A model generated the notes under the pieces. It was not told where the DNA came from. It ran no database searches and was given only the letters and a program-made list of their open reading frames with translations. Shown here piece by piece: positions 2,825-62,975 of a DNA stretch of 64,000 nucleotides; position 1 is the stretch's first letter, and every line of letters begins with the position of its first letter. The stretch spans positions 15,871 through 79,870 of the forward strand of contig JACRAP010000023.1 in assembly GCA_016213365.1 (NCBI GenBank). The letters run 5' to 3'. The translations under genes and the position numbers were made by a program. Source of the stretch: Candidatus Berkelbacteria bacterium. GTDB lineage: Bacteria > Patescibacteriota > UBA1384 > 2-12-FULL-50-11.

Positions 2825-4159
2825 CTACCTTGAAAGGTAAACAGTCCCTTCTGGTGTATCCAATACCTCAAATCCGGCTTGTTCTATCTCTTTCTTCCTA
2901 TTATCTGCAGTTAAGTAATCTGCACCAGATCGTGCCTGTTCGCGTTGAGCTACTAATTCCTGAAGTGCCGGGTTGTTAGAAATTGACATATGCTTTAACC
3001 CTAATATTTCAAATATTTGCTCAAATTGCTCCTTATTAAAATCGTTTGTTTCGGTAGAAAGAATTTGTAGAGCTTTTGGCGTGTCCAAGTCGTCGTTTAG
3101 TGCTTCAATAAACCTGTTAAAAGCGTCTGTATTGGCGTTTTCTTGAGTATTAGCATATGCCATAAAAAGCTTATGTCTTAACGCCACTCCTTGCGCTAAC
3201 GATTCCTTGGTGTAATCAAACGGTTTACGGTAATGCGTACCATATAATGCCAATTTTAGCTCGTTTGCTGAATACTCCTTTAAAGCGTCTTTTACTAAAA
3301 CTGTGTTGTGAACTGACTTGCTCATTTTTTGACCATTAATTGTAAGCATTCCGGCATGCACCCAATAATTTGCCATTGGTTTATTAGTTAAAGCTTCTGA
3401 TTGGGCGATCTCGTTTTCGTGATGTGGAAATACATGTTCAACAGCAGAGCCATGAATATCGAAAGTATCACCAAGGTATTTTCGAATCATCGCCGAGCAT
3501 TCGATATGCCAACCTGGGTATCCGCGTCCCCAAGGCGAATCCCAAACAAATTCGTGACTCATAACGGGTGACGCTTTCCACAGAGCAAAATCCGCTGGAT
3601 TACGCTTATCCTTAGCGCTATCAACTCTTGTGCCGGTAATAACTTCCGCTAACGTTCGGTGACTTAGTTTGCCGTAATCGGCTTTTTTGGTAACACTAAA
3701 ATAAATATTATTCTGGTTTGTAACATATGCGTAATTATTTTCGATCAATCCTTGAATGAATTCTACAATTTCTTGAATGTGCTCGGATGCTTTTGGGAAG
3801 TTTGCGGCTGATAATATATTCAACGACCTTAAATCTTCTAGGTGCGAATCGGTATACATATGAGCGATATCCGACACCGACTTGCCGAGTTCGTGTGCTT
3901 TTTGTTGAAGTTTATCGGCGCCAACTTCTGCGTCGTTTACCAAATGTCCTACGTCGGTAATATTTTGTATGTAGGTAACGTCGTAACCTGAATATCTTAA
4001 AAATCGGTTTAATAAATCGAACGACAGATACGTTCGGGCGTGACCGATGTGATCGTAATCGTAAACAGTTGGACCGCAGACATACATACCAACTTTCTTT
4101 GGCTGAATCGATTGAAATTCCTCTTTACTACTAGTGAGAGTATTGTATATCTGGAGCAT
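2825..4159 (-). CDS. cysS: Cysteinyl-tRNA synthetase
   Basis: HIGH-type motif region [17 protein letters not shown] and KMSKS motif present. Class I CysRS architecture, 444 aa. Confidence 0.95.
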
Positions 4160-12118: not shown

Positions 12119-12994
12119 CTATGGTTTGATGTTGCCGGTTCCGCTATATGCGTTAAATTCGTAAATACCGATTAATTTATCGCTAGTTCGATCAACTAAA
12201 GCCACTAACGTTCGCTTTGCGTTACCGTAATAACCAGTAGCGGTGATGGTTGTATTAAGCGAGTCAAATTCAATTGGTGGGTTAGTACTTCCACTTACAG
12301 ACGCTTCGAATGTAATATCACAGTAATATGGGGTAAACCTAACTTGTAAAACATTTGAAGCACTATTAATAAGAATTGGCGTTGTGCTGTCAGTTGACCA
12401 AGTACCGGTGTTATTAAAATTAGCTACAATATTCTGAATATTATTTGTGGAATCCAATATTTGGATTTGTACAAAAGAGGAGTCTTTTCCGCTACCGACT
12501 GCAACGCCATCGTCTACGCAGGTCGTATCAGTTCTTTTAAAGAATAAATTTAAATATACCGAGTCTGCCACCTGAGTAAATCCAGATAGTGTTATAGTGC
12601 TATTTCTAATTAACTCACGTGTTTCAATTTTGTTGGTTTTATATTCTATTCCTAAATCATAACTTTGCTGATTAGCTTTTTGTTTAAAGTTTGTGCCGTC
12701 AGTTCCTGCGCGCAAATCATACTTAAACTCGCTACCTTTAGGAATTTCTACGTTTTTACTGGTTCGGTAACGAAGTAGCCCGTCTTCAATACCGGCTTTG
12801 GCAGCATAATAGGCGTATAAATTATCTTCTTCGCTATTGGCTTGATTGTATTGAACCAGCACAATTCTTTGAGTGCCAAAAATAACGGTAATAATGCCTG
12901 CAACCACTAACAGTACTAAAATTAAACTACTTGCGCGTTGTTTTTGTTTCATTAATATACTCCAGGAACTATTGTTGTTCTTAAATTGTAACAT
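12119..12994 (-). CDS. Hypothetical N-terminally membrane-anchored protein in the pilus operon (PilX/PilW-like minor component?)
   Basis: Single N-terminal TM (ASSLILVLLVVAGIITVIF), Ser/Thr/Asn-rich beta-type remainder. The likely real start is the internal Met (MKQKQ, about 12952), overlapping the upstream pilin stop. Confidence 0.4.
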   Translation of the reverse strand: MLQFKNNNSSWSILMKQKQRASSLILVLLVVAGIITVIFGTQRIVLVQYNQANSEEDNLYAYYAAKAGIEDGLLRYRTSKNVEIPKGSEFKYDLRAGTDGTNFKQKANQQSYDLGIEYKTNKIETRELIRNSTITLSGFTQVADSVYLNLFFKRTDTTCVDDGVAVGSGKDSSFVQIQILDSTNNIQNIVANFNNTGTWSTDSTTPILINSASNVLQVRFTPYYCDITFEASVSGSTNPPIEFDSLNTTITATGYYGNAKRTLVALVDRTSDKLIGIYEFNAYSGTGNIKP

Positions 12995-13608
12995 CTACCG
13001 CTTGTTGTTTGTCCGGACGCAAAACACTGTGTTAATTCAGCGTCTTTTGTTGTAACATCGATAGCTACCGAACCTGATAAACTAGAGGTTGATAATTTAT
13101 GAGTTACAGTCATTTTCGTAAGTCCGTAATCAATTAGATACTGTCCCTGATTTAAATTTGATCCATCGCCGATTGCTGCTCTAGTTAGCGGGCAGTTAGT
13201 AACTGTGTTAGAATCTATACCACTTAATTCGTCAATAATTTCGCAATCTCTCACTTCCGCAACCCTAACTCGACCGTTAATTGCAAATCGATATTTTTTG
13301 ACTGTATAATTTGAATCTCCTGGATATTTTAGTAATAAACTTAGATCTTTTTCTGCATCGCGATAACAAAATCCTAAATATTCGAGGTTTTCGGTACAAA
13401 ACGGCGGGTGGGTTTTAATATCCACATACCTTAAATCGTTAGCAATTTGATCGATGATACTGCGTGTTACTTGGGTTTGTTCCCTAACAGCATTAGATTT
13501 ATTAGCAGAATTTGCGCTACGAGCAAAAACACCGATCGATAAAATAATAAGTCCTGAAAAAATTGCGATCGACACAAGTACTTCGATTAATGTAAATCCC
13601 CTATTCAT
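12952..13608 (-). CDS. Type IV minor pilin / pseudopilin (prepilin N-terminal methylation motif)
   Basis: MNRGFTLIEVLVSIAIF has the class III signal G|FTLIE. Confidence 0.75.
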   Translation of the reverse strand: MNRGFTLIEVLVSIAIFSGLIILSIGVFARSANSANKSNAVREQTQVTRSIIDQIANDLRYVDIKTHPPFCTENLEYLGFCYRDAEKDLSLLLKYPGDSNYTVKKYRFAINGRVRVAEVRDCEIIDELSGIDSNTVTNCPLTRAAIGDGSNLNQGQYLIDYGLTKMTVTHKLSTSSLSGSVAIDVTTKDAELTQCFASGQTTSGRCYNLRTTIVPGVY

Positions 13609-14339
13609 TAGTTTTGCTCAAAACCTTTCCAGTTTGTAAGTAAGGTCGACATTTCAGTAGTTTTCCACTCACCGCGATCTTCCCAAATTATTACAGAGCG
13701 AACCCGGACCACATTACCGGGTAATACAAAATAGTCCGAAACTCCCGTGGGTTTATTTTTATTTAACGACTCCTTTGAGGCGATACAGTAATTATCTGCG
13801 CTATCACAGTCGCTGTAACCCTGTAATCTATTACCGTCCTTTTTATCAGCGTAAGTTTCCGCACCTTCTACCTCGGCGTTACAATCAACAAAATCTTCGG
13901 ATGTGTAGCTTTTGGCGCCGTAAGCTTCGATACAAATTAATCTGTAACCAGTAAGACCGGATGTACTAGTAATTACTGCACCGGTCAGTTGTGATTCTTG
14001 TGCAGTAAGTCCATCAAACGTTAGTCTTTTTTGTAAGCTAGTTTTAGTTGCAGAAGTGGAACTTACGCTATACCACCCATACTCATCGGAACTGACCGCC
14101 GGAGCAAACCAAACTTTTTCACTATTTACCAAAACACCACCGGAAGCAACGTTGTCGTTTCTGACTTTTGTAACAAGCTCTAATCCTTCGCTCGCCCAGC
14201 GATTTGTTTCGGTGTTATCGGCAGTTTGACTGGTTCCTTGAATGATCGTATTTGTAAGCCCAGCAACGGCGCCAGCCACCATAAACAAAATACCGGCGGC
14301 TATAAGTACTTCTATTAATGTAAATCCCCTCTTTTGCAT
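13608..14339 (-). CDS. Type IV minor pilin (prepilin-type N-terminal cleavage/methylation domain)
   Basis: MQKRGFTLIEVLIAAGILFMVAG. Confidence 0.75.
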   Translation of the reverse strand: MQKRGFTLIEVLIAAGILFMVAGAVAGLTNTIIQGTSQTADNTETNRWASEGLELVTKVRNDNVASGGVLVNSEKVWFAPAVSSDEYGWYSVSSTSATKTSLQKRLTFDGLTAQESQLTGAVITSTSGLTGYRLICIEAYGAKSYTSEDFVDCNAEVEGAETYADKKDGNRLQGYSDCDSADNYCIASKESLNKNKPTGVSDYFVLPGNVVRVRSVIIWEDRGEWKTTEMSTLLTNWKGFEQN

Positions 14340-14340
14340 A

Positions 14341-14943
14341 TTAATTAAACTTAAAACTTAACTTTCCGGTAACGTTATTCACACTTAGCGTGGCAGTTTT
14401 TTCGCCGTTATTCAAGCTAAGATCTGAAAAATCTATCCAGCTAGAATAGACAATATTTTGCGGATCGACAATTTCAATTCCAACATTTGGCGTATACTGG
14501 GCTTTAAATAGTTGCTGGGTTGGTACTTTAAATAATACAAAGACAGGACTAGTTGTTTGGTGTGTAACACCGTTACTTAACGGAATTTTTTCAACTACAC
14601 AATCCCCATATGTTTGTGAAATAACTTCTGAATTTGTAAAACTTGATATTTTACACGTTGCGGTGGGGTTATCAGTTGTATCATCAACTCTTAATATGTA
14701 GACATCTTTATTACTATCAGACGGAAAGTAAAGGGCGTAATAGCCCTTGCCGCTGTCGAACTGTTGAGTTGAGCCAGCAAGTAATCGAACTTGTTCGAGT
14801 TTTGCCTGGAGTAACTGGGCATCGTTGGCGATATTGTTTTTAGATAGCGAGCGGTTGATATTTGGAATTAATAGCGTCGCCATTAAAGCGATAATCGCGA
14901 TTGTGATAAGTACTTCAATTAAAGTAAATGCTTTTTTTATCAT
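14341..14943 (-). CDS. Type IV minor pilin
   Basis: MIKKAFTLIEVLITIAIIALMATLLIP. Confidence 0.75.
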   Translation of the reverse strand: MIKKAFTLIEVLITIAIIALMATLLIPNINRSLSKNNIANDAQLLQAKLEQVRLLAGSTQQFDSGKGYYALYFPSDSNKDVYILRVDDTTDNPTATCKISSFTNSEVISQTYGDCVVEKIPLSNGVTHQTTSPVFVLFKVPTQQLFKAQYTPNVGIEIVDPQNIVYSSWIDFSDLSLNNGEKTATLSVNNVTGKLSFKFN

Positions 14944-15713
14944 TAACTACTCAACCCCAGATACCAGCGTAACAAATACTCACCCCAAAACAAAGCAACA
15001 ATTGCACCGGCTACTAAAAACGGCACAAATGGAACGGCTGATGTGGGCTTGGCTTTTTTGGTTAATATTAATATTGCTCCTATTAATCCGCCGCCGATAA
15101 ACGCAGTCGCGAGCATTACCCAAACGTTGGGGTACGCCACCAACAATCCTAGGGCCAGCGCAATTTTAATATCGCCCTTACCCATCCATTTTTCGCCAGA
15201 CGGATATACTAAAACTAAAATCGGTACAACGGCGGTGATTGCGCCTATTGCCAAGACGCTAACTTCGCCCCAATACATAAAACCAAAAATCGCAGCGAAT
15301 ATTATCAGTAAGTAGCTTAAAGTGTCGGAAACGAGCATTTCGCTTAAGTCTTGTACAATTAATATTACCAGCAAGGAAAAAATTACGATTAGTATTTTGG
15401 TTAAAATTATTTGAGTGGTTAAGTCGGCGCCAAAGCTTGAAATTAAAAACCAACTGCTTGCAGTCAAAATTCCCATTGCCAATTCAACAACTGGGTATTG
15501 GTACGAGATCGGCTTTTTACAGTATCTGCATTTGCCGGCAAGCATTAAGTAACTTACAAGTGGGATTAAATCGCCGGCATGGAGTTTATGACCGCATTTC
15601 GGGCATTTGGACCTACCAGTTACTGCCGAGCTTAAGTCGTCGAATCTTGCGATAACTACGTTTAGGAACGACCCAATAACTAAGCCGAAAATAAATAGTA
15701 CAAAGTAGGTCAT
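14943..15713 (-). CDS. pilD: Prepilin peptidase (A24 family) PilD
   Basis: N-terminal C4 zinc-binding CPKCGHKL...CRYCKK and a polytopic membrane protein with conserved Asp region. 256 aa. Confidence 0.9.
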   Translation of the reverse strand: MTYFVLFIFGLVIGSFLNVVIARFDDLSSAVTGRSKCPKCGHKLHAGDLIPLVSYLMLAGKCRYCKKPISYQYPVVELAMGILTASSWFLISSFGADLTTQIILTKILIVIFSLLVILIVQDLSEMLVSDTLSYLLIIFAAIFGFMYWGEVSVLAIGAITAVVPILVLVYPSGEKWMGKGDIKIALALGLLVAYPNVWVMLATAFIGGGLIGAILILTKKAKPTSAVPFVPFLVAGAIVALFWGEYLLRWYLGLSS

Positions 15714-15797
15714 AATTTTAGATTAACAGCATATCCGCAGAAGTGCTATTGCAATCAATCTTCATGGGATATTTCACCCTAGAATAGTTAATTACAA

Positions 15798-16385
15798 CTA
15801 TTGTGGGCCGTAAGTGACGAACAGTCTTTGGGATTCAACATTTGTTGTGCCAAGCGCACCAATTTGAATAGTTGTATTGGACGCGACACAACCAGAAATG
15901 CAGAGTTGGCTTGCGATTGGTTCGTAAGTGCCATTTCCATTCGTAACTAATCCATCAGACGAGCCACTATTTTTAGTTGTTTCTTGCTTGTTTTCAAGTT
16001 CCCACGCAAGTAGGTACTTTTCACCCCCTGTAGTGGTTCTAAATCTAGCAAATGTTCCACCGGACGGATCTGGATCTTTACACACTGACTCGCTACTCAT
16101 ATATCCGTTGTCAACTAAATCTGCCTTAAGACCACGGCAATGATTTCCATCGCCCGATACTTCCTGTAAGAATATTGTAGTTGATTTGATGGGATAAGAA
16201 TTTTTATCCACAGCATATTGCTCCATTGCTAGCGAAATTGCTTTCGCATTGTTCTTCCTTTGCGTATCTCGTGCTCTACGTTGTGCACCGCTTAGGGCAA
16301 CAATAATTAAAGCAGCAAGAATACCGATGATAGCGATAACTACCAACAGCTCGATTAAGGTGAAACCTTTGTTTTTATTTAGCAT
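15798..16385 (-). CDS. pilA: Type IVa major pilin PilA-like (paralog 1)
   Basis: [59 protein letters not shown], 195 aa, with C-terminal Cys residues. Confidence 0.8.
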   Translation of the reverse strand: MLNKNKGFTLIELLVVIAIIGILAALIIVALSGAQRRARDTQRKNNAKAISLAMEQYAVDKNSYPIKSTTIFLQEVSGDGNHCRGLKADLVDNGYMSSESVCKDPDPSGGTFARFRTTTGGEKYLLAWELENKQETTKNSGSSDGLVTNGNGTYEPIASQLCISGCVASNTTIQIGALGTTNVESQRLFVTYGPQ

Positions 16386-16461
16386 TTAATCCCTCCAATT
16401 GTTATTACAGCTTTTAGACTGTCTCTAGGAGAGCACGCTCCCCTAGTAGACAAACTAAGAG

Positions 16462-17025
16462 CTACTGTGGACCGTAAACAACGAAATATTTTACATTTGT
16501 AGTTGCATCAAGCCCTGTTAGGGTTAGCCCGTTAACTGTTAAGCTACCTGAAGTAGGTCCATATACACCATTACCCGACGTACCAGTTTTTGCGATTTCT
16601 TGGGTATTCTCAAGCAACCAAGCTAAAATATACGAAGACCCCAATGTTGCTGAACCCGTAGAGTAAGCAGCATAACTTGCTGTTTTTCCTGTAGTTGGAT
16701 CCTTACAAATTGCATTACTACTCATATAGGATGCGGTAATGAGCGTCGTAATCGCCGTAGGACAATCATAAGTTGGTACTGGGAAGTTTGCCTGAGCCGA
16801 AGCTGGATAAGAGCCGCTGTTATCCACAGCATATTGCTCCATTGCTAGCGAAATTGCTTTCGCATTATTCTTCCTTTGCGTATCTCGTGCTCTACGTTGT
16901 GCACCGCTTAGGGCAACAATAATTAAAGCAGCAAGAATACCGATGATAGCGATAACTACCAACAGCTCGATTAAGGTGAAACCTTTGTTTTTTATATTTA
17001 TTTTCATTTTTCTCCTTTCGGACAA
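16462..17025 (-). CDS. pilA: Type IVa major pilin PilA-like (paralog 2; first 60 aa identical to paralog 1, divergent C-terminal domain)
   Basis: Same N-terminal 60 aa. About 175 bp of DNA (16822..16995) is near-identical to 16205..16378. Confidence 0.8.
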
Positions 17026-17148
17026 AATTTATACTTTAACTTTCGTCGACCGCCCCTCTCGGTTTGAAAAGATCGGTGAAAGCCCTCAAATACAATATCT
17101 ACCTTACAAAAATTCCTGTCAAGTTTTAGCAGATTTTACATATACAAA

Positions 17149-18219
17149 TTACTGAATTGCCCCGGCAAGGCCGTAAATCGGCACTATAATCGAGAACACT
17201 AAGAAGGCAACGCCAAGCCCTACGATAATAAACACGAGCGGTTCGATTAACGAAGCGAAATTTTTAGTTGATTGATTGGTTTCAGCTTCGTAAAAGTCGG
17301 CTAGCTTGCCTAATACTTGTTCAAGCTTACCGGTACGTTCACCGGCGGCGATCATTTCGGTAACGGTTGTTGGGAAGTCTTTATACTTCATCATCGTTTG
17401 TGAGATCGGTGCGCCACGCTCAACGTTGCGGGCAATTTGCTTGAGCGCTTCGCGGAAAATTACCGAATCCATTACTAAAGCTACGGAGTCAATCGCTTGG
17501 ATAATCGGCACTCCGGCTTGCATCATAATACCCAAAATCCTAGTAAATCGTGCCATCTCTAAATCTTTAATTAAAATTCCCACTACCGGCGTTTTAAATA
17601 ATAAATTATTGAGCACTCTTTGCCCCTCGATCGTCATTAAATACCTTGTAAGTAAGAAAATTAAAAACGCGATTGCGGCGATATAGATATACCAGTAATG
17701 GATAATAGAATTTGTAATTGTAACTACTAACTGGGTGGTCCACGGCAAGTCTAAGCCGGATTCGATAAAGACCGACTCTAGCGCCGGAACAATTCTGGTT
17801 ACCATAATTACACCGACAATAAACATCGATACCACAATTAACGCCGGGTATAACATCGCACCGATTACCCTGCTTCTAAAGGCGTAGTCACGCTCTAACT
17901 CGTCGGCAAGTAAATTTAGGGCAACGTCAAGCTTACCAGAAGATTCCCCGGCCGCTACAACAGAAACAAAAACGTGGTTGAAGATTTTCGGGTGTTTTTT
18001 GATCGCATCGGACAGTCTGTAACCGTTTTCAAGGTCGTTCACCAGTTCAATTAATGAGTCGTAAACAATTTGGTTTTTAGTTTGCTCTGAAAGCGATCTA
18101 ACGGTTTGTACTAACGGTAGCCCCGCATCAAGCATTACTGCCATCTGCCGAGCAATAAACGAGCGCTCTTTGGCAGAAACCCTATTTAGTACATTAAAAC
18201 TGAACTTTCGGTTTGACAT
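17149..18219 (-). CDS. pilC: Type IV pilus assembly platform protein PilC (GspF family)
   Basis: Two GspF repeats and three TM segments. 356 aa. Confidence 0.9.
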   Translation of the reverse strand: MSNRKFSFNVLNRVSAKERSFIARQMAVMLDAGLPLVQTVRSLSEQTKNQIVYDSLIELVNDLENGYRLSDAIKKHPKIFNHVFVSVVAAGESSGKLDVALNLLADELERDYAFRSRVIGAMLYPALIVVSMFIVGVIMVTRIVPALESVFIESGLDLPWTTQLVVTITNSIIHYWYIYIAAIAFLIFLLTRYLMTIEGQRVLNNLLFKTPVVGILIKDLEMARFTRILGIMMQAGVPIIQAIDSVALVMDSVIFREALKQIARNVERGAPISQTMMKYKDFPTTVTEMIAAGERTGKLEQVLGKLADFYEAETNQSTKNFASLIEPLVFIIVGLGVAFLVFSIIVPIYGLAGAIQ

Positions 18220-18223
18220 ATGT

Positions 18224-19291
18224 TTAATAAACCATCATTTTGAACGCTTTTGGATCGATCGCCCAAGATAGGGCGGTGTCGATTGTAATTTCTCCCCTAC
18301 TTACAAGTTCTGCCATTACTTTATCGAGCGAAATCATTCCCTCGGCGGCGGAAGTTTGGATAATATTGTTTAGTTGATGGGTTTTACCTTCGCGGATGGT
18401 GTTACGCACTGCCGAATTAGCAACCATTATTTCTGTTGCTAGAATTCGACCGGATTGAGCTCTTGGCAGAAGTCTTTGCGAAACAACGCCGAGCAATACG
18501 TTAGCAAGTTGCATTCTAACCTGTTGTTGTTGGTGTGGCGGAAAGACGTCGATAATTCTGTCTGCTGTTTGGGCGGCGCTGTTGGTATGAAGCGTGGTAA
18601 ATACAAGATGACCGGTTTCAGCCAGCGTTAAAGCGGCTTCGATCGTTTCTAGGTCGCGCATTTCACCAACTAGAACAACGTTTGGATCTTCACGCAAACT
18701 TGAACGCAAAGCACGGGCGAACGAGTTAGTGTCCGAACCGACTTCTCGTTGTACAATCATTGACTTTTTATGATCGAAAACGTATTCGATCGGATCTTCG
18801 ATGGTAATAATATGTTCGGCGCGCTTTTGGTTGATCGCTTCTATTAACGCCGCAAGCGTGGTCGATTTTCCGTGACCGGTTGGACCGGTAATAATCACAA
18901 AACCTTGACTTGGTTCGGTAAATCTTTCAAGAATCGGCGGAACCCCTAAATCTTCAAGACTTCTAATTACACGTGGGATTAAACGTAGGGCGACAGAAAT
19001 AGAACCTCTTTCGTAAAAGGCGTTGGTTCGAAAACGCATCGATTCGTAGCCGAACGAGAAGTCGATTTCACGACGTTGTTGTAGGCGCTCCATCTGTTCG
19101 GCGGTCATAATGCTCATAAGCAAGCGTTGGGCAGATTCTGGGGTAACAGGTGAGGCACCGTCAACTGGCATTAATTTACCGTCGATACGAATTGTTGGTG
19201 GCATACCAACTGTAATGTGTAAATCGCTTGAACCACGCGAAATAGCGGTGTCTAAAAGTTGCTTCATCTCTGCTGTCATTGCTTCTGTCAT
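18224..19291 (-). CDS. pilT: Twitching motility retraction ATPase PilT
   Basis: Walker A GPTGHGKSTT, Asp box, Walker B and His box. 355 aa, typical of PilT. Confidence 0.9.
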   Translation of the reverse strand: MTEAMTAEMKQLLDTAISRGSSDLHITVGMPPTIRIDGKLMPVDGASPVTPESAQRLLMSIMTAEQMERLQQRREIDFSFGYESMRFRTNAFYERGSISVALRLIPRVIRSLEDLGVPPILERFTEPSQGFVIITGPTGHGKSTTLAALIEAINQKRAEHIITIEDPIEYVFDHKKSMIVQREVGSDTNSFARALRSSLREDPNVVLVGEMRDLETIEAALTLAETGHLVFTTLHTNSAAQTADRIIDVFPPHQQQQVRMQLANVLLGVVSQRLLPRAQSGRILATEIMVANSAVRNTIREGKTHQLNNIIQTSAAEGMISLDKVMAELVSRGEITIDTALSWAIDPKAFKMMVY

Positions 19292-19335: not shown

Positions 19336-22011
19336 CTACATCGTGCTCGAAATATCTCTAATTGATGCGGTTGTTACCCGCATTACTTCGTCCACTGTTG
19401 TTATTCCTTTTAAGGCCTTGATTAAGCCGTCTTGCATCATTGTTATCATACCCTCTTTTATGGCTTGATTTTTCAATTCCGAGGCCGGTACTTTTCTATT
19501 TGCCAGCGCTTCTATGCCCGGTGTCATCGGCAACACTTCGAAAATTCCAATTCTACCCAAGTAACCGTTTGAGCATTTAGCACAGCCCTTACCGTGATAA
19601 AAAGTTAATTGCTCTTTGTTGATATTTTTTAGCTGACCGGTCGGAATTTCAGAGATATGCTTTAGGGCAAAATCCTTTACGGCCGATGGCAACTCAACAT
19701 GCTCTTTACAGTTATCACAAATTTTTCTAACTAAACGTTGGGCGATTACTGCGTTAATCGACGAGGTAATCAAAAACGGCTCAACACCCATATTAATTAA
19801 TCGTGGTAAGGCGCCGGAAGCGTCGTTGGTGTGAAGCGTCGAAAGTACCAAGTGTCCAGTTAAGGCCGAGTGCGTTGCCATCGCCGCTGTTTCTAGATCG
19901 CGAATTTCACCGACCATAATTACGTTAGGGTCTTGGCGCAAAACCGAACGTAAGCCGTCTGCGAAGTTGAAACCGATTTGTGGTTTTACCTGTGATTGGT
20001 TGATGCCAGGGAGCTCGTATTCAACCGGGTCCTCAAGCGTCACGATATTTACCCCCGGTTTACTAATTCTATTTAGAATTGCGTAAAGCGTGGTGGATTT
20101 ACCAGACCCAGTCGGACCGGTGGATAGGATAATTCCAAACGGTTTGTCGATATTTTCTACCAGTCGGTCGAAGTTAGTGCCTGTTACGCCAAGTTGCTCA
20201 AGCGTTAAAATACCAGCGCTTTTGTCCAGTAAACGCATAACCACTTTTTCACCGTGAACGGTTGGTAACGTTGAAACACGAATATCAACCTGGTGTCGAT
20301 CGATAATAACATCGAAACGACCGTCTTGCGGAACGCGTTGTTCGTCGATTTTCATTTTTGAGAGAATTTTAACCCTAGAAATTAGCGGCGAGCTTAAAAA
20401 TCCTGGGACACGCAAGACATCGTGCAAAATACCGTCGATTCTGTAACGCACCCGAACTGTTTCTTTTTCGGATTCAAGATGAACATCGCTGGCTTTCATC
20501 CTAATTGCCAGAAAAATTGTTGAGGCGATAATCTCTGGGATTGCGCCCTTTTTATAAACATTTGCTAGTTCCTGTATGCTGGTGACTTCTTTTTGAATTA
20601 GGGCGTCAAGATTTTCGTTTTCAAGTGATTTTGTTTGCTCGCTAGCTAATTCTTCTAACTGCTCGTTTTGCAATTCGTTAGGTTTATTTATGATTTCACT
20701 TGCTTCGACCGTTACACCACCCTCTAGAGGCGGGGGTGGAATTTTTTTAAATGACGGTATTTTAGCGGGCTCGGTTTTTTGATCTTCGGGCTTGTTTTGT
20801 TTTAGCGCCCCTGGAGTTGGTTGTTCCTTTGGTTTGTCCGACTCAAATTCTCTGCTTGTTGAAATAGTTTGCTCTTTGGGTTTGGTTAAAGTTGGCGGTG
20901 TTGTAACGACTGCTTCTTTTGTGGGTTGTTGAGTTGGCGCCTGAACAGGTTTTGAAGGATAGAATTTCAGAGCGTGTGTTAGCGACTCCTCGTCGGTAAT
21001 ATAGCGATCAACCAAAACTTTATTTTTTTGCTCGATGTAATGCAAAATTTCTTTTACGTGGACGTTTTCGGGGTTTACAACCGCCACTTTTATTTGCGGT
21101 ACTTCGTAACCGCTACCGGATTTTGTTTCGCCAAAAACGACTAATCGATATTTACTTGCAACCTCCTGCGGAATTTTTTTAATAATATTTTGTGGAATTT
21201 CCAGTTTGCGTAAATCAACGTGTTTAATCCTTGGCTCAACTTCGTTGATTAAATCTTTTTTATTTAATGCCTGTATCGGTTGGAATTTTCCGAGGATTCC
21301 GCCGCTTTTTTCTTGTTCCTGAGGTTTTGGCTCGGCTTTTAATTCCGGCTTTACCTGTTCTACTGGTTTTACTGTTTCGGTTTTGGGTTGTAGCGGTACA
21401 GTTGGTTGCTGGGGCGGTAACTCTGGTTTTACCTCTTCTGGAGATTTTGTTTGTGGAGTTACTGTTTTGGGAACAGATTCAATGCTCGGTACTTTAGTTA
21501 GTTTAGCGGTTTCGGGGACAAACGGCTTGGGCATCGCCAGTTGTTTAACGCGTTGCTCAAGTACTTTTATTAACGCCTTAAGCTGGGCTGGGTTAACAAG
21601 CGACAAATGAATTCTAAGCCCTTTTTGTTGGCGGATATTAGCGATAATTTTGGGCGCGTCTTTTTGAAGTTTCGACGGTTTGCCGATCGCCAAATAAAAA
21701 TTATTGCCTTCGATTTTATAGGGTACAACTTGATATTGCTTAATTATCTCGATCGGGATCATCCGGGCAACTGCCGGACTAATTGGTACGTTTGTTAAAT
21801 TTACAATATCTAGATCGAAATATTCGGCGAACTCGTCGACAATCTGCTCGATAGTTAAAAGACCTTTTTCGATTAAGTAATTTTCAATCTGCTCGAGATC
21901 TTTGCCTTTTAAAATATCTTTAAACCCGGGCTTAAGTAGCTCTCGCTGAATTAACTGCGAAACAAAGGCGCTATCGGCTCTGCTAAAATTTCGGGTGGAG
22001 TTGAACGCCAT
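19336..22011 (-). CDS. pilB: Type IV pilus assembly ATPase PilB (GspE family) with an extended N-terminal region containing Pro/Lys/Glu-rich linkers
   Basis: Walker A GPTGSGKSTT, a C-terminal tetracysteine (CDNC...CAKC), and GSPII_E N-terminal domains. 891 aa versus about 570 typical, with long low-complexity PT/KPE linkers. Confidence 0.9.
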   Translation of the reverse strand: MAFNSTRNFSRADSAFVSQLIQRELLKPGFKDILKGKDLEQIENYLIEKGLLTIEQIVDEFAEYFDLDIVNLTNVPISPAVARMIPIEIIKQYQVVPYKIEGNNFYLAIGKPSKLQKDAPKIIANIRQQKGLRIHLSLVNPAQLKALIKVLEQRVKQLAMPKPFVPETAKLTKVPSIESVPKTVTPQTKSPEEVKPELPPQQPTVPLQPKTETVKPVEQVKPELKAEPKPQEQEKSGGILGKFQPIQALNKKDLINEVEPRIKHVDLRKLEIPQNIIKKIPQEVASKYRLVVFGETKSGSGYEVPQIKVAVVNPENVHVKEILHYIEQKNKVLVDRYITDEESLTHALKFYPSKPVQAPTQQPTKEAVVTTPPTLTKPKEQTISTSREFESDKPKEQPTPGALKQNKPEDQKTEPAKIPSFKKIPPPPLEGGVTVEASEIINKPNELQNEQLEELASEQTKSLENENLDALIQKEVTSIQELANVYKKGAIPEIIASTIFLAIRMKASDVHLESEKETVRVRYRIDGILHDVLRVPGFLSSPLISRVKILSKMKIDEQRVPQDGRFDVIIDRHQVDIRVSTLPTVHGEKVVMRLLDKSAGILTLEQLGVTGTNFDRLVENIDKPFGIILSTGPTGSGKSTTLYAILNRISKPGVNIVTLEDPVEYELPGINQSQVKPQIGFNFADGLRSVLRQDPNVIMVGEIRDLETAAMATHSALTGHLVLSTLHTNDASGALPRLINMGVEPFLITSSINAVIAQRLVRKICDNCKEHVELPSAVKDFALKHISEIPTGQLKNINKEQLTFYHGKGCAKCSNGYLGRIGIFEVLPMTPGIEALANRKVPASELKNQAIKEGMITMMQDGLIKALKGITTVDEVMRVTTASIRDISSTM

Positions 22012-23422: not shown

Positions 23423-23522
23423 CGCCCCTCCTTTTTTATCCTATGAATTTACTTTACTTGGCATTACTAGAAGCTGTCAACATTTGTAAGTTTGTAGTGA
23501 ATTATCTGCTTTGAGATTATTG

Positions 23523-23598
23523 GCAGGGGCGACAGGAGACGAAAGTCGCACTGCGAGCTCCTAGATTCTCGCTGGCTTAGCTAGCTCGAAACCGAACC
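23523..23598. repeat. 76-bp direct-repeat copy 1 (tRNA-Trp 3'-end-like 16-mer, Shine-Dalgarno sequence and GTG start)
   Basis: gcaggggcgacaggagacgaaagtcgcactgcgagctcctagattctcgctggcttagctagctcgaaaccgaacc is about 93% identical to 24354..24430. Confidence 0.75.
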
Positions 23599-23642: not shown

Positions 23643-24383
23643 TCATTCGTAGAATTGCGTCCACCCTTCCATCGTTCCCTCATTACGAAATGCTTGATTT
23701 AGCTTTTCTTCTAAATCTGGCTTCGACCTATAAAGACTCTTATAAAGATTAGGGTAAAGAGGTTGGAGATAATAATATTGGGGGTATTTCACCTTCATCG
23801 CTTCGTATAACCCCGTCCAGAAAGTAAATACTTTTTTAGCATCATAAAAGCAAATCTCGCTCGGTATCGCGTTAAGCCCCAACTTATGTGTTTTATAGGT
23901 TATCTGATCCACAACCCTCTTCCATGTCTTATCGTTAACTAACGCAAGTATCTGAACATTAATAATTTCCCTGTCATTCGTACGCTCAGTTTCATAGATA
24001 TGTGAGTGAGTGAGGGCGTTTCGCACTACTATTACTTCATCATAATCCTGCTTTAAGGGGTGCGTTCCTCCAATTAGTTTATTGAATTTACTGCCAACCC
24101 TTTCATTTAGTAAGTCGGCAGACCAATTATTATTTTTTATTAACAAATATATAACCCTGTTGAAGTACCCTTCTATACTATTAACTAACAGAATTATTGC
24201 CTCAGCTGCTTGAGTGCTTTCCCCGCAGGATATTGGCTTACCTGCTTTGTGATTTGGGTTCCTCTTTGAATACTCGTATGCCAATAAGTAGTGATTCAGG
24301 GCATCTTCAGCTGTAAAAACTGGGGATATTTCCAAATGATTCATATTATATTTTGCAGGGGCGACAGGAGACGAAAGTCGCAC
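23643..24383 (-). CDS. Hypothetical 246-aa protein bounded by the 77-bp direct repeats; possible HEPN-like (Rx4H) motif
   Basis: GTG start preceded by AGGAG at a 6-nt spacing, both encoded within repeat copy 2. Motif VVRNALTHSH. No integrase or transposase signatures. Confidence 0.5.
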   Translation of the reverse strand: MRLSSPVAPAKYNMNHLEISPVFTAEDALNHYLLAYEYSKRNPNHKAGKPISCGESTQAAEAIILLVNSIEGYFNRVIYLLIKNNNWSADLLNERVGSKFNKLIGGTHPLKQDYDEVIVVRNALTHSHIYETERTNDREIINVQILALVNDKTWKRVVDQITYKTHKLGLNAIPSEICFYDAKKVFTFWTGLYEAMKVKYPQYYYLQPLYPNLYKSLYRSKPDLEEKLNQAFRNEGTMEGWTQFYE

Positions 24384-24430
24384 TACGTGCTCCTAGATTC
24401 TCACTAGCTTAGCTAGCTCGAAACCGAACC
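24354..24430. repeat. 77-bp direct-repeat copy 2, followed by a 20-nt tRNA-Trp T-arm remnant (24425..24444)
   Basis: gcaggggcgacaggagacgaaagtcgcactacgtgctcctagattctcactagcttagctagctcgaaaccgaacc, then tgcgacctacggtt, which equals part of tRNA-Trp. Confidence 0.75.
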
Positions 24431-24457: not shown

Positions 24458-24533
24458 TGGCAGGGGTGACAGGATTCGAACCTGCGACCTACGGTTTTGG
24501 AGACCGGCGCTCTACCAACTGAGCTACACCCCT
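24458..24533 (-). tRNA. tRNA-Trp (anticodon CCA)
   Basis: Manual fold of aggggtgtagctcagttggtagagcgccggtctccaaaaccgtaggtcgcaggttcgaatcctgtcacccctgcca: 7-bp acceptor stem, anticodon loop CUCCAAA, T-loop TTCGAAT, CCA encoded. Confidence 0.9.
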
Positions 24534-32193: not shown

Positions 32194-32727
32194 TTAATTA
32201 CCGGTAACGAAATACTCTCCTAAATCGCTATTCGTACAACCCACCTGTGATCCGCCAAAACTTACCGTCCAAATATTATTCTGTCTAGCACATTCTGCCT
32301 TGATGGTATTAGTTACATTTTCCAATTTCGTGCGCAGGCGATAATGTTTTCTATCGCTGGTTAAATTGTACTCGTAGGTATCTGTTGATTTGGGCGGCGA
32401 AGGAATGGTTGGTAAGTATTGGCTAAACGGATTACAGTCGGTTGAAGTTTTAGTTTTAAGAGAACTGACATTTAGCCAAGTTTTTGTGGCATTCGGACTT
32501 TCATCAGTAATCGGGTAAATACCAATTGTTAACGGGTCTGAACAAGTCCTGTCTAACTTTCTTGCTTCAAAGGCCTGGCCGATCGCGTAAAGGTCGGTTT
32601 TTCTTTTGCCATCGCGAGCATTTCTTTGAGCGCGCAGGGTTGAAACTGTAATTAGCGTTGCCAAAATCCCGATAATGCCGATTACCGCCATCGATTCAAT
32701 TAAAGTAAAAGCTCTACTTTTTGTCAT
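32194..32727 (-). CDS. Pilin-like protein (prepilin N-terminal methylation motif) between argS and tyrS
   Basis: MTKSRAFTLIESMAVIGIIGILATL. Overlaps the tyrS stop by 4 nt. Confidence 0.7.
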   Translation of the reverse strand: MTKSRAFTLIESMAVIGIIGILATLITVSTLRAQRNARDGKRKTDLYAIGQAFEARKLDRTCSDPLTIGIYPITDESPNATKTWLNVSSLKTKTSTDCNPFSQYLPTIPSPPKSTDTYEYNLTSDRKHYRLRTKLENVTNTIKAECARQNNIWTVSFGGSQVGCTNSDLGEYFVTGN

Positions 32728-58468: not shown

Positions 58469-58730
58469 AAAAACTCAAAATGTTCGAGTGTGTTCCAAAC
58501 TAAAGTTGAAGATACTTCTTCTAGTAGCTGTTTACTCTTTCCTGCCTAGAAATATCGCAATTACATAAACGATGCTATCGAGATTGCTCTCGACAGTTAA
58601 ACAGAAAAGAGAAAGTAATTCATGGACCTATAAGTATCCCTTGGCTCAACGCGTTACCGCGCTTACACCTAGGACCTTTCAACCCGGTAGTCTTCCGGGG
58701 GTCTCATAACGAAGATTAATCTTGGGACCT

Positions 58731-58761
<31 letters not shown>

Positions 58762-59039
58762 AGTTATGATCGTAGCTACTCGACAGTGCCCTTGGCAGGA
58801 CAGCCGATACACCAGCGGATCATCCGCTCCGGTCTTCTCATACTAGGAGCCGCCTCCCTCAATCTTCCGCGCTTACAGCAGATGAGGACCGAACTGTCTC
58901 GCGACGTTCTGAACCCAGCTCGCGTACCCTTTTAATTGGCGAACAGCCAAACCCTTGGGACCTTCTCCAGCCCCAGGATAGGATGAGCCGACATCGAGGT
59001 GCCAAACTGCGCCGTCTCTGTGGACGATTGGGCGCAATC

Positions 59040-59076
<37 letters not shown>

Positions 59077-59236
59077 GCCGGCCGTCTCGTACTGAAACCG
59101 GCTGGATCACTTACGCCTGCTTTCGCACCTGCTCGGCTTGTAGGCCTCACAGTCAAGCTCGCTTTTGGGTATACCCTATCGGTACGATTTCCACCCGTAC
59201 CTAGCGAACCTTTGCACGCCTCCGTTACCTTTTAGG

Positions 59237-60123
59237 CAATTTTGTTAACTTAGTTTGTATTTCATCGAGGGAATTATATGGTTTGACACCAATAAGGTAA
59301 ATTTCTCAATTTGACTGGCGGGAATATAGATCTGGTACCCGTCTAACTGCCTCCGAAGCGTCGTCGTAATTACGAATTGGTTCTTCAACAAATCTTGCAA
59401 ATAACTAACACTTTGAACATCAAATGCTTGAGTATTTAGTATTTTTGCGCGATGTTTAGCTGACTTGGATGACCCATCATCCATAAACCAAACCGCTAAT
59501 GATAATTGCGTGACAAATCGTGAAATTGTTCCTGGAATTATCTTTTTTCCTTCTCGATAGAAGAGCTTTCCATACGGCGACAAAGACTCAAGGCCCAAGG
59601 TATTAAAGTAGTAGTTTCTACTTTGCTTACCATTCCTATGCTTTTCTTTTGCTTTTGGTTTCGTCCTTACAAGATTATGTAGTTCGGAGTAAATCCATTC
59701 CACATACTCTTTGTGAGCGAACGATTGCTCAACTTTCAAACGATATGTTCTGCCGTTATTCTGAGTTTCTAAATGTCCGTCACCCAACATTAGTCCGACA
59801 ATTATTTCTATTTGACGGGGCGTTAGATTAACAGATTTTGAAATATCATGAATTTCTGCGGTATTCATACCTATTTAAGCGTCTTGTACAAAGACAAGAC
59901 TCTGTATGTCGCCATACAGTTCAGACTATATCTTCGCTAGAATTTGTAAATACTATTTTCTAGCGCTCGGCGTGTAGTCGTTGAGGGGTCAATTCATTTC
60001 TGAACGACTTCCCTGCTGATTGTCTCCATAGTCCAACCGATTACTCGTTGGAATTTTAGAGAGGTCCCAGCATATAGCCAAGATGCCCCTTTCTGATCGT
60101 TATTATACTGGTGATCATGGTCA
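59237..60123 (-). mobile_element. Group I-type intron in 23S rRNA domain V (887 nt) carrying a homing endonuclease ORF
   Basis: Conserved exon sequence gactggggcggtcgcct | cctaaaaggtaacggagg is interrupted. The 5' exon ends in U and the intron ends in G. An ORF fills the 3' two-thirds. Confidence 0.6.
59245..59868 (-). CDS. LAGLIDADG homing endonuclease (double-motif) encoded within the 23S intron
   Basis: Motif 1 RQIEIIVGLMLGDGHLE and motif 2 LSLAVWFMDDGSSKS. 207 aa. Confidence 0.85.
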   Translation of the reverse strand: MNTAEIHDISKSVNLTPRQIEIIVGLMLGDGHLETQNNGRTYRLKVEQSFAHKEYVEWIYSELHNLVRTKPKAKEKHRNGKQSRNYYFNTLGLESLSPYGKLFYREGKKIIPGTISRFVTQLSLAVWFMDDGSSKSAKHRAKILNTQAFDVQSVSYLQDLLKNQFVITTTLRRQLDGYQIYIPASQIEKFTLLVSNHIIPSMKYKLS

Positions 60124-61415
60124 AGGCGACCGCCCCAGTCAAACTACCCATCTGACACTGTCTTAGTTGTTTTTGCAACTAGTGAGTCTCAAAACAAACG
60201 AAGGGTGGTATTTCACTGTTGTCCGAAGACTCCCACCTATGCTACACATCATGTGCCCTGAAACAATATCAAACTGTAGTAAAGCTCCACGGGGTCTTTC
60301 CGTCTTGCTGCAAGTAGCCGGCATCTTCACCGGCAGTGTAATTTCACCGAGTCCCTCTTTGAGACAGTTTTCAAGTCGTTATGCCATTCGTGCGGGTCGC
60401 TACTTATGCGACAAGGAATTTCGCTACCATAGAACGGTTATAGTTACCGCTGCCGTTCACTCGGGCTTAAATTCGAGCCTCGTCCCGCACTTTGAACACA
60501 AAGTGCTAAATCCTAAATCCTAAGTTCTAAACCCTAAACAGACAAATCCGTTTTGAGTTTAGTGTTTCGAATTTTGAATTTTCACCTTGTGCGCAAGGTG
60601 CGGGAGTCAGCCCTCCTCGTAACCTACGAGCACTGGGCAGGCATCAGCCCCTATACATCTCGTGAGAGATTTGCAGAGACCTAAGTTTTTGTTAAACAGT
60701 CGCTTGAAAGTCATTTGCTGCGGCCAGCACCGCTGCTCCGCACCAGTAAATCCTAAATAACAAGTACTAAATTCAAAACTTGAATTTAGTGTTTTGTGCT
60801 TAGAATTTGCCAATGCGAAGCATTGGGACTGGCAGTCCATATTCCGAAGTTACGGACGCTTTTTTGCCGAGTTCCTTAAAGAGGGTTCACTCGACCACCT
60901 GAGGCTACTCGCCTCAACTACCTGTGTCGGTTTGCGGTACGGATACTAAACATAGTTGACTTAAGAATTTTCTTGCCAGACTTTGAGGTGCTTTCGAAAT
61001 CCAATAATCTTAGCACCCACGGGTCCGTGTCTTCTTAAGGTAGTTGTTTAGTAGTGACGGAATATTAACCGTCTGAACATCGGGGTATTCCCTTAGATCC
61101 GACTAACCCACAGACGATTGGCGTTGCTGTGGAAACCTTAGATATGCGGTGACCAGGGTTCTCACCTGGTTTTCGTTACTCATGCCAACATTCGCACTTC
61201 GTATCGCTCCACAGTCGCTTACGCTTCTGCTTCACTGCAATACGAACGCTCCTCTACCACTCGCAGATAAATCTGCGAATCCTAAAATTCGGTACCTAGC
61301 TTAAGCCCCGTTGAATTTTCCGCGCAAAAAGGCCTAGAGGATTTCTACGCCGCGAAGGCTTTCGCCGACACATTGTAGAGAATCGTAGGATCGACTAGTG
61401 AGCTGTTACGCTTTC

Positions 61416-61447
<32 letters not shown>

Positions 61448-62033
61448 TAGTTGTCTACGCCTTTCCACTTCGTTTTCCACTTAGCTAGAATTTAGGGACC
61501 TTATTTGTAGGTCTGGGCTCTTTCCCTTTAGACCATGCAGCTTAGCCCGCACAGTCTGACTGTATATCCCAAACGGTGTGTATTCGGAGTTTGATAGGAG
61601 GTGAGAGCTTGCGCCCCCAAACTCCTTTCAGTGCTCTACCCCACACCATGCGGATATACGCTATACCTATATATATTTCGAGGAGAACCAGCTATCTCCG
61701 GGTTCGATTAGTATTTTACCGCTTACCACAAGTCATCCCCCAATTTTGCTACATTGGTGGGTTCGGCCCTCCCTGCTAGGTTTCCCTAGAGTTCAGCCTG
61801 CTCATGGCAAGATCACCCGGTTTCGGGTCTAATCCCTGCTGCTAACAGTCGCGCTATTAACACTCGCTTTCGCTTCGCGTTCGATGCATAACATCTTACA
61901 CTCGCAACAAAGATTAACTCGTTGGCTCATTCTTCAAAAGGCACGCCGTCATCCGCCAATTGGCGGACTCCGACTCCTTGTATGCACATAGTTTCAGGTA
62001 CTATTTCACTCCCATACTCTGGGTACTTTTCAT

Positions 62034-62064
<31 letters not shown>

Positions 62065-62975
62065 TAGATATAGTATTTAGCCTTACGGCACGATCACCGT
62101 ACCTTCCGACTGGATTACACGTGTCCAGCCGTACTCAGGATCAGTATCCAAACGGTAAAGTAGTTTAAAATACGGGACTATCACCCCCTATGGTGGTCTT
62201 TTCCAAGATCCTTCTTCTACTACTTTTTGAACTCGTTCGATTTTACAATCTGATACTGCCCTATAACCCTCGCGCATCTCATGTTGGACGCAAGCAAAAA
62301 CAAATTTTCAAAAGGCTAGATCCATTAATTTTAAAGAATCGCCTGTTACTTACTTACGCCCAAGATGAGACACACGAGTTTGGGCTTTTCCCTATTCGCT
62401 CGCCGCTACTGGGGGAATCGTTACTACTTTCTTTTCCTCCGGCTACTAAGATGTTTCAGTTCGCCGGGTGCCTCTGTCGCTTCGCTTCAAACTCAAAATT
62501 ACAAACTCTAAATCCAAAATCAAAATATCCGTTTTGAGTTTTGAACTTTGAGCTTTGAATTTAAAGTGAAGCGACATAATGTCGGTTCACGACATTGGGT
62601 TTCCCCATTCGGAAATCGCCGGATCAAAGCTTGTTGTCAGCTCCCCGACGCTTATCGCAGACTACTACGTCCTTCATCAGCTATATCTACCAAGACATCC
62701 TCTATGTGCACTTTGGTGAATTACTTACTCTGTCTTTCACGGAAAGTGAATTAGACAGAGTTACTTGACCAACTTTTTCCATTTCTGGGATACAGAAATT
62801 TGAAAGTTGGACTTTTTTGCTAAAAGTTGAAATATCTTCAACTTTAGCTTGGAACCTAGTTGTTAAGATGACGCAAGTTAACAAAAAGCCGCTGTTGGCG
62901 GCCGTAAAGTCAACCAAAAAACAGTTGGCTTTTAACCGGCTCCTCCTTTGGTTTTACTTAACATGTACCTAACAA

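Follow-up and report, generated by a model that had tools for sequence, protein, structure and literature searches.

In Streptococcus sanguinis, the major pilins PilE1 and PilE2 are encoded by adjacent genes of one type IV pilus (T4P) locus, have an identical alpha-1 helix, use one machine and vary in the globular part (PMC10628169; PMC6497953); the two co-polymerize stochastically (PMC10628169). Legionella pneumophila also encodes two related predicted major pilins, PilA1 and PilA2, in one locus, and PilA2 alone was found to be detectably surface-exposed (PMC13170364). In Neisseria, non-reciprocal recombination in the pilE/pilS system yields pilins with a constant N-terminus and a variable head (PMC12871193; PMC4877100), and in the tandem pilA cluster of Francisella tularensis, direct repeats flank pilin-coding DNA (PMC2941502). 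Among bacteria of the Candidate Phyla Radiation (CPR), Saccharibacteria TM7x carries lollipop-type major pilins with pilB/pilT/pilC/pilD machinery, and its T4P-1 and T4P-2 provide two pilus surfaces, for motility and for host binding (PMC11623550). The locus described here shares features with each of these systems. It forms the only T4P operon in a Berkelbacteria-like member of the CPR, is contained in a 64-kb stretch of DNA (the window) and carries two tandem, paralogous major-pilin genes with almost identical alpha-1-coding tracts and strongly diverged heads. We consider it likely that these tracts are homogenized by gene conversion and that both pilins serve one machine.

The two genes and the repeated tract within them are located as follows.

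16462..17007, minus strand: upstream major-pilin paralog, 181 aa (open reading frame, ORF; Pfam N_methyl, 8e-10; AlphaFold2 predicted local distance difference test score, pLDDT, 88.5; lollipop pilin)
15798..16385, minus strand: downstream major-pilin paralog, 195 aa, 4 Cys (ORF; Pfam N_methyl, 4e-10; AlphaFold2 pLDDT 87.9)
16820..16992, minus strand: repeat copy 1, alpha-1-coding tract of the upstream gene (173-nt direct repeat, 99% identical to copy 2)
16204..16376, minus strand: repeat copy 2, alpha-1-coding tract of the downstream gene (173-nt direct repeat partner of copy 1)

An initial annotation of the window had reported tandem PilA-like genes with a near-identical 5' region of about 175 bp, leaving the strand unstated; both genes lie on the minus strand, and the region corresponds to an ungapped 173-nt direct repeat with one mismatch, a synonymous AAC/AAT. 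The repeat begins at the Lys codons that precede Gly-1 and ends at Asp53 of the mature pilin; it spans the whole alpha-1 helix predicted by AlphaFold2, and the two pilins are identical over 57 residues, from Lys-3 to Asp53. Both copies are in the same codon phase, 616 nt apart from start to start. This is by far the longest repeat of the window, and none of the window shuffles held even a 44-nt piece of it. Its flanks differ between the genes, with distinct ribosome-binding sites and distinct leader peptides (MKINIKNK and MLNKNK). The upstream ATG at 17007 stands 5 nt after a GGAG ribosome-binding site (17013-17016), and a TTG at 17025 in the ORF list is the less likely alternative start.

Both proteins display the hallmarks of type IV pilins, namely a short basic leader, cleavage after Gly-1, Phe+1, Glu+5 and a hydrophobic alpha-1N; MKINIKNKG in the upstream and MLNKNKG in the downstream pilin are each followed by cleavage and FTLIELL. 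The AlphaFold2 models likewise show the pilin architecture, with an alpha-1 helix (residues 10-61 or 12-62), two short helices and 5-6 strands. The second copy is not a pseudogene, as had been stated before, since both ORFs are intact, have their own ribosome-binding sites and leaders and match Pfam N_methyl. In its mature form, the upstream pilin is identical to P0001, an NCBI protein of Candidatus Berkelbacteria, and only the called start differs. The downstream pilin contains the family motifs GNG.Y and FVTYGPQ-stop. Both would be major pilins, judging by their position behind a conserved promoter and leader and by membership in the FVTYGPQ-ending family, which supplies the sole pilin of the related loci L001, L002, L055 and L061.

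The origin of the identity was examined at the codon level. For positions at which both proteins have the same degenerate amino acid, the share of identical codons was counted; in the window pair it amounted to 52/53 in the 54-codon N-terminal segment, compared with 20/46 in the heads (Fisher p = 2e-10). The heads are thus near synonymous saturation, while the stalk is essentially without divergence. In addition, syntenic loci of relatives were collected, in which the order pilB-pilT-pilC-pilin(s)-pilD-minor pilins is conserved. Between pilC and pilD, one major pilin gene is found in L001, L002, L055 and L061, two in the window, L003, L004, L053, L059 and L062, and three in L054. Over the same 54 codons, six tandem pairs of these relatives (L003, L004, L053, two in L054, and L059) retain 70-85% amino-acid identity at a DNA identity of 60-72% and a share of identical codons of 0.27-0.55. 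Since pairs with such similar proteins have diverged in DNA, protein-level constraint does not yield DNA identity here, and purifying selection was rejected as its cause.

A second homogenized pair was found in L062, one of the contigs L062-L067 from six Joint Genome Institute (JGI) samples, whose pilin regions are identical or one base apart. Its stalks are 88% identical in DNA with a share of identical codons of 0.84, compared with 32% protein identity and a share of 0.31 in the heads. Within genomes, stalk nucleotide identity is 0.99 for the window pair and 0.88 for the L062 pair, whereas all four window-versus-L062 stalk comparisons give 0.69-0.70. Likeness of paralogs that so far exceeds likeness between genomes is the classical signature of concerted evolution. 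The identical tract has the same 5' edge in both loci, at the Lys codons before Gly-1, and the mosaic, partly decayed state of the L062 tract suggests events that were older or recurred. Altogether, the stalk identity is a product of within-genome homogenization and not of protein-level constraint. Non-reciprocal homologous recombination (gene conversion) between the copies is very probably its cause and has probably recurred. The proposal of the initial annotation that recombination acts on the pilin pair is thereby borne out, as the contrast between stalk and head codons and the six relatives' pairs exclude constraint.

Besides varying in pilin number, the slot between pilC and pilD takes insertions: L054 (419-2121) holds genes for a DUF3800 protein and a MazE antitoxin along with its three pilin genes, and the slot of L055 (4725-5126) contains a helix-turn-helix regulator gene on the opposite strand. 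Contigs L003 (964-2249) and L004 (963-2267) belong to the same Saccharibacteria-labelled metagenome-assembled genome (MAG; CAYGDK01) and both start in pilC at the same residue. They carry different alleles of both tandem pilins, the heads of the first pilins being 44.5% identical, as if pilin diversity among strains had broken the assembly at this locus.

The heads of the window pair had initially been described as unrelated. This does not hold, since a BLASTP comparison of the heads alone gave 38.5% identity over 109 aa (E 2e-17), and both contain the motifs YMSS..CKDP, LAW.LEN, GNG.Y and a terminal YGPQ-stop. Structure prediction, which had been suggested as a check, also argues against unrelated heads, as the AlphaFold2 models of both pilins have the same order of secondary-structure elements (pLDDT 88 each, predicted template modelling score 0.8). 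The heads are old, strongly diverged homologues, as distant from each other as pilins of different species. Outside this genome, the best database match of the downstream head is 33% identical. A foreign origin of this head was considered and rejected for want of a compositional signal: G+C content and G+C at third codon positions (GC3) are alike in both heads and similar to the locus. Foldseek searches against the PDB gave weak pilin matches and no functional clue for either head; for the downstream model, the top matches were the type IV pilins CofA, gonococcal pilin (1AY2) and TcpA, with E values of at least 0.01.

It is in the direction and reach of recombination that the locus departs from described systems. 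Neisseria donor cassettes are silent, promoterless and 5'-truncated and lack the N-terminal coding region. The conversion envisaged for the window would homogenize the N-terminal stalk of two complete, expressible copies, whereas conversion in Neisseria changes the head (PMC12871193; PMC4877100). Variation of the pilE/pilS type was accordingly rejected, as the second copy is equipped with a ribosome-binding site, ATG and leader of its own and with a full N-terminus, and a search for further partial pilin copies across the 64-kb window found none. Piv-type inversion in Moraxella involves inverted pilin segments and an adjacent invertase gene. This too was rejected for the window, where the repeats are direct, a search of 15700-17100 detected no inverted repeats and all neighbouring ORFs are T4P genes. 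Swapping of pilin heads, as initially proposed, is likewise not what the data indicate: because the repeats are direct, reciprocal recombination between them deletes or, by unequal exchange, duplicates the upstream head and the hairpin that follows it and does not exchange heads, and the observed pattern is one of stalk homogenization, not of head movement.

With regard to two-pilin systems, the window shares with S. sanguinis two adjacent major pilin genes with an identical alpha-1 helix. However, PilE1 and PilE2 are highly similar throughout, unlike the window heads at 38.5% identity, and their co-assembly was demonstrated by cryo-electron microscopy, whereas that of the window pair is putative; the consulted part of these papers does not note a conserved intercistronic hairpin or concerted evolution at the DNA level (PMC10628169; PMC6497953). 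PilA1 and PilA2 of Legionella are about 72% identical with differences along the whole length, and a sharp boundary between identical and diverged parts is not described for them (PMC13170364). In TM7x, the two surfaces come from two loci, two machineries and unrelated major pilins (PMC11623550), in contrast to the one machinery, adjacent pilins and identical stalk of the window.

Furthermore, conserved non-coding elements precede and separate the two genes.

17094..17122, minus strand: sigma-70-like promoter of the pilin pair (-35 TTGACA, 17-nt spacer, -10 GATATT; 10/12 consensus positions)
17034..17085, minus strand: conserved 5'-leader motif GCTTTCACCGA ... GAGAGGGGCGGTCGACGAAAGT before the upstream pilin (covariance-model match, 70.7 bits)
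16414..16458, minus strand: intercistronic RNA hairpin, 19 bp, CGUG loop, no U-tract (spacer free energy -25.9 kcal/mol, z = -3.7)
16391..16396, minus strand: GGAGGG ribosome-binding site of the downstream pilin (read from sequence, 5 nt before the ATG at 16385)

The spacer between pilC and the first pilin holds the best promoter match of the region. Its -35 element, CTTGACA, is kept in eight of nine aligned spacers, the exception being the p2-p3 spacer of L054, which has a terminator in place of the leader, and three more loci (L058/L059, L061 and L062) also have the element ahead of the leader. In the aligned pilC-pilin spacers, CTTGACA is followed by a -10-like element, and the conserved motif starts approximately at the expected transcription start. 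A scan of the 76-nt inter-pilin spacer found no comparable promoter-like site. The leader consists of GCTTTCACCGA, a variable insert of 24-72 nt and then GAGAGGGGCGGTCGACGRRAGT, with GGUCGACG as the invariant element within the motif. Its core, GGTCGACGRRAG, occurs once per locus in 19/19 clade loci, once in the window and in 0/48 other loci, and wherever the context was inspected the motif stood before one major pilin gene. A covariance model built from five sequences recovered six others (E 2e-9 to 1.5e-5) with no other match in 282 kb; each clade locus gave exactly one match, always ahead of the leader-bearing major pilin gene, and neither the searched outgroup loci nor the rest of the window gave any.

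As RNA, the leader could fold with an outer stem CUUUC/GAAAG that encloses the variable insert. The fold reaches 93% pairing, which shuffles equalled, and one pair is changed on both sides; an RNA fold is plausible, covariation is weak, and the motif could equally be a DNA operator. The leader is best regarded as a conserved motif that is a candidate for a cis-regulatory RNA or for an operator. A second conserved hairpin, GUGGCUYGAAUAUUSAGCCAU, was observed in the long pilin leaders of L003 (~1660-1690), L054 (~3300-3330) and L058/L059 (~3455-3485) and is absent from the window. Both window pilins appear to be transcribed from the one conserved promoter and leader; as these precede the upstream gene only and the spacer lacks a promoter-like site, the downstream gene is most likely expressed by read-through.

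The inter-pilin spacer (76 nt, 16386-16461) contains the hairpin directly after the first stop codon. The stem-loop of 22 bp originally placed at 16425..16446 is real and forms the top and core of the 19-bp helix at 16414-16458, and the separate ribosome-binding site reported between the genes was also found, as GGAGGG at 16391-16396 before the downstream ATG. The L062 spacer has the same architecture, and a GGAGGGAT ribosome-binding site also precedes its second pilin gene; all 19 of the 19 pairs are kept, with 6 compensatory and 3 G-C/G-U changes, compared with 0-1 both-sided changes and 29-58% pairing in controls slid by 1-3 columns. Judged from this alignment, the hairpin is under structural selection. 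G-U pairs occur on the sense strand only, which points to a constraint on the pilin mRNA and argues for a role at the RNA level.

Known classes of element did not account for the hairpin. A Rho-independent terminator was rejected, as the stem is present and the U-tract absent (the tail reads AGUCUAAAAGCUG) and a terminator scan gave no site at this position. In L002, L003, L053, L054, L055, L059, L061 and L062, the last major pilin gene is followed by a strong canonical terminator with A-tract, stem and U-tract; since relatives, including L062 itself, have such terminators after the last pilin, the hairpin is a different kind of element. An element of the repetitive extragenic palindromic (REP) type was rejected as well, since the hairpin sequence occurs just once in the window and was found in none of 67 loci. 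Rfam searches with the hairpin and the leader, at the gathering threshold and at an E-value cut-off of 10, returned no match. No canonical terminator was found after either pilin gene of the window, and the 84-nt spacer before pilD (15714-15797) folds weakly and has no U-tract, so that transcription from the pilin promoter may continue into pilD and the minor-pilin genes of this genome. With a promoter and leader before the first gene only and a conserved, U-less hairpin between the genes, the differential expression of the two pilins raised in the initial annotation is plausible.

Taken together, the following sequence of events is proposed. Gene conversion, probably recurrent, would keep the alpha-1 segments identical, and the pair would be co-transcribed from the promoter and leader upstream of the first gene. 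The hairpin probably acts at the RNA level, as a 3'-end-stabilizing, processing or attenuating element, and through it the upstream pilin would be made in excess of the downstream one. The adjacent PilD might then cleave both pilins, and the same PilB/PilC/PilT machine might polymerize both. As the alpha-1 helices are identical, they could pack interchangeably in the filament core. The outcome might be a mosaic pilus like the one that PilE1 and PilE2 form in S. sanguinis; alternatively, each pilin might form a homopolymer with a surface of its own. T4P are the best-supported host-contact organelles of CPR/Patescibacteria, with experimental evidence in Saccharibacteria, and by analogy with these the window pili may take part in host attachment (PMC11623550). 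A more far-reaching version, which we hold to be rather improbable, is that promoter, leader, first pilin, hairpin, ribosome-binding site and second pilin form a CPR-specific expression module; in such a module, the leader of ~50 nt would be a new cis-regulatory RNA, sensing a ligand or protein, that gates the pili, the hairpin would fix the ratio of the heads, and conversion would be selected for a mosaic pilus with broader or switched host attachment.

Among the alternatives to homogenization by gene conversion, programmed or semi-programmed switching survives best and is nevertheless unlikely. RecA-dependent deletion between the repeats would place the downstream head in frame behind promoter, leader and stalk, and unequal sister exchange would regenerate or amplify copies, giving a mixed pilus population. 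The repeats are indeed direct, share their codon phase and have a length sufficient for RecA-dependent recombination; they bracket pilin-coding DNA as in Francisella, and relatives carry 1 to 3 major pilins in the slot between pilC and pilD. In F. tularensis, direct-repeat-mediated pilin deletion is documented and attenuates virulence (PMC2941502), whereas no deletion or amplification variant was seen here; the only relative sampled more than once (L062-L067) is identical or one base apart across six samples. Moreover, deletion would remove the upstream head and the hairpin and place the downstream head behind the strong promoter: it would be a one-way switch that destroys a hairpin kept by selection across lineages. 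The locus also contains neither a site-specific recombinase gene nor inverted repeats.

Slightly less probable still is a one-off event, in which a divergent pilin or head was acquired or relocated through a crossover in alpha-1, or the resident 5' part was copied onto an old paralog, leaving the downstream gene as a low-level accessory pilin. A single mismatch in 173 nt dates the last event to the very recent past, the databases offer nothing closer to the downstream head outside this genome than the 33% match, and most tandem pairs in relatives are not homogenized, all of which would fit such an event. On the other hand, L062 combines a homologous hairpin, ribosome-binding site and layout with an independently homogenized, partly decayed mosaic tract, which suggests repeated events, and the locus-like G+C and GC3 of both heads carry no foreign sign.

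An assembly artefact, in which two strain alleles of a single pilin gene were mis-chained in tandem through their common 5' region, would suit a sequence from a metagenome-assembled CPR genome with a repeat of about one read length, and the alternative pilin alleles after near-identical pilC ends in L003 and L004 of another MAG speak for it, but it is highly improbable, given that the copies differ at one base, that the 76 nt of unique spacer and the different ribosome-binding site and leader codons between them would not arise from a collapsed allelic bubble, that the spacer is homologous to that of L062 with compensatory changes, and that a Berkelbacteria genome that is closed (L059, CP066697.1) has the same layout, as do contigs L062-L067 of the six JGI samples; an artefactual repeat, named at the outset as the finding that would refute the arrangement, is accordingly unlikely.

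Homogenization by gene conversion in a one-machine pilin pair also has to be weighed against several points that speak against it. Six of the eight tandem pairs in relatives have diverged stalks, so that an identical alpha-1 is not required for coexistence, and homogenization could be a neutral by-product. Taken by itself, the pattern of the window could equally stem from one recent event, for example from recombination with foreign DNA that replaced a head. Conservation of the hairpin rests on one comparison of two sequences, the window and L062; these are not obviously sister lineages, and their common cassette could be ancestral or laterally moved. Co-transcription, a dosage role of the hairpin and co-assembly are all deduced from sequence.

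The pilin pair lies within a contiguous operon on the minus strand, in the order pilB-pilT-pilC-pilin-pilin-pilD-minor pilins, and by the ORF list and Pfam all genes that flank it belong to the T4P system. Besides the pilins, the locus thus encodes a prepilin peptidase, ATPases for assembly and retraction and a platform protein.

19336-22011, minus strand: pilB, T4P gene
18224-19291, minus strand: pilT, T4P gene
17149..18219, minus strand: pilC, platform protein, immediately upstream of the pilin pair (Pfam T2SSF, 4e-59)
14943..15713, minus strand: pilD, prepilin peptidase, immediately downstream of the pilin pair (Pfam A24_N_bact and Peptidase_A24)
12119-14943, minus strand: four minor-pilin-like genes, contiguous with the T4P genes

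The host of the window is a Berkelbacteria-like CPR bacterium, and the nearest relatives of its PilC, at 60-76% identity, come from Berkelbacteria, Patescibacteria and Saccharibacteria MAGs. Scanning of genome and metagenome collections with PilC yielded a best relative of at most 76% PilC identity and nothing at strain level, and exact-sequence look-ups with both window pilins (three start variants) and P0001 found no matching contig. Identities of PilT and PilC to the window are similar across all relatives, which are roughly equidistant. The 23S rRNA gene (58611-62726, minus strand) measures 4116 nt compared with a 2925-nt model and carries insertions of ~1.2 kb; these include a match to a group I intron (59902-60151, minus strand), which fits a CPR organism. 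The gene also contains AT-rich internal repeats at 60507-60581, 60747-60779 and 62489-62562. Outside the T4P operon, an orphan prepilin-like gene (32194-32727, minus strand; 177 aa, KSRAFTLIESMAVIGIIGILA...) adjoins two large ORFs. A 79-nt direct repeat (23520-23598 and 24352-24430; 94% identical, 832 nt apart) flanks an ORF at 23643-24383 just downstream of tRNA-Trp (24458-24533, minus strand). The repeat may represent a duplicated leader or a small RNA that escaped annotation, and it matched no Rfam family at the gathering threshold.

In the literature searched, neither concerted evolution of tandem pilins from CPR bacteria nor the hairpin or the leader was found to be described. Two-pilin arrangements and pilin gene conversion are already well known in other bacteria, and the understanding of pili is unchanged by this locus. 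What it offers is a clean and quantifiable case of concerted evolution limited to the filament-core segment of a pilin. The hairpin and the leader motif add two conserved non-coding elements that are possible regulators of the pilins of this clade. As CPR genomes are very small, the retention of two major pilin genes, with very different surfaces and one machine, represents a deliberate investment.

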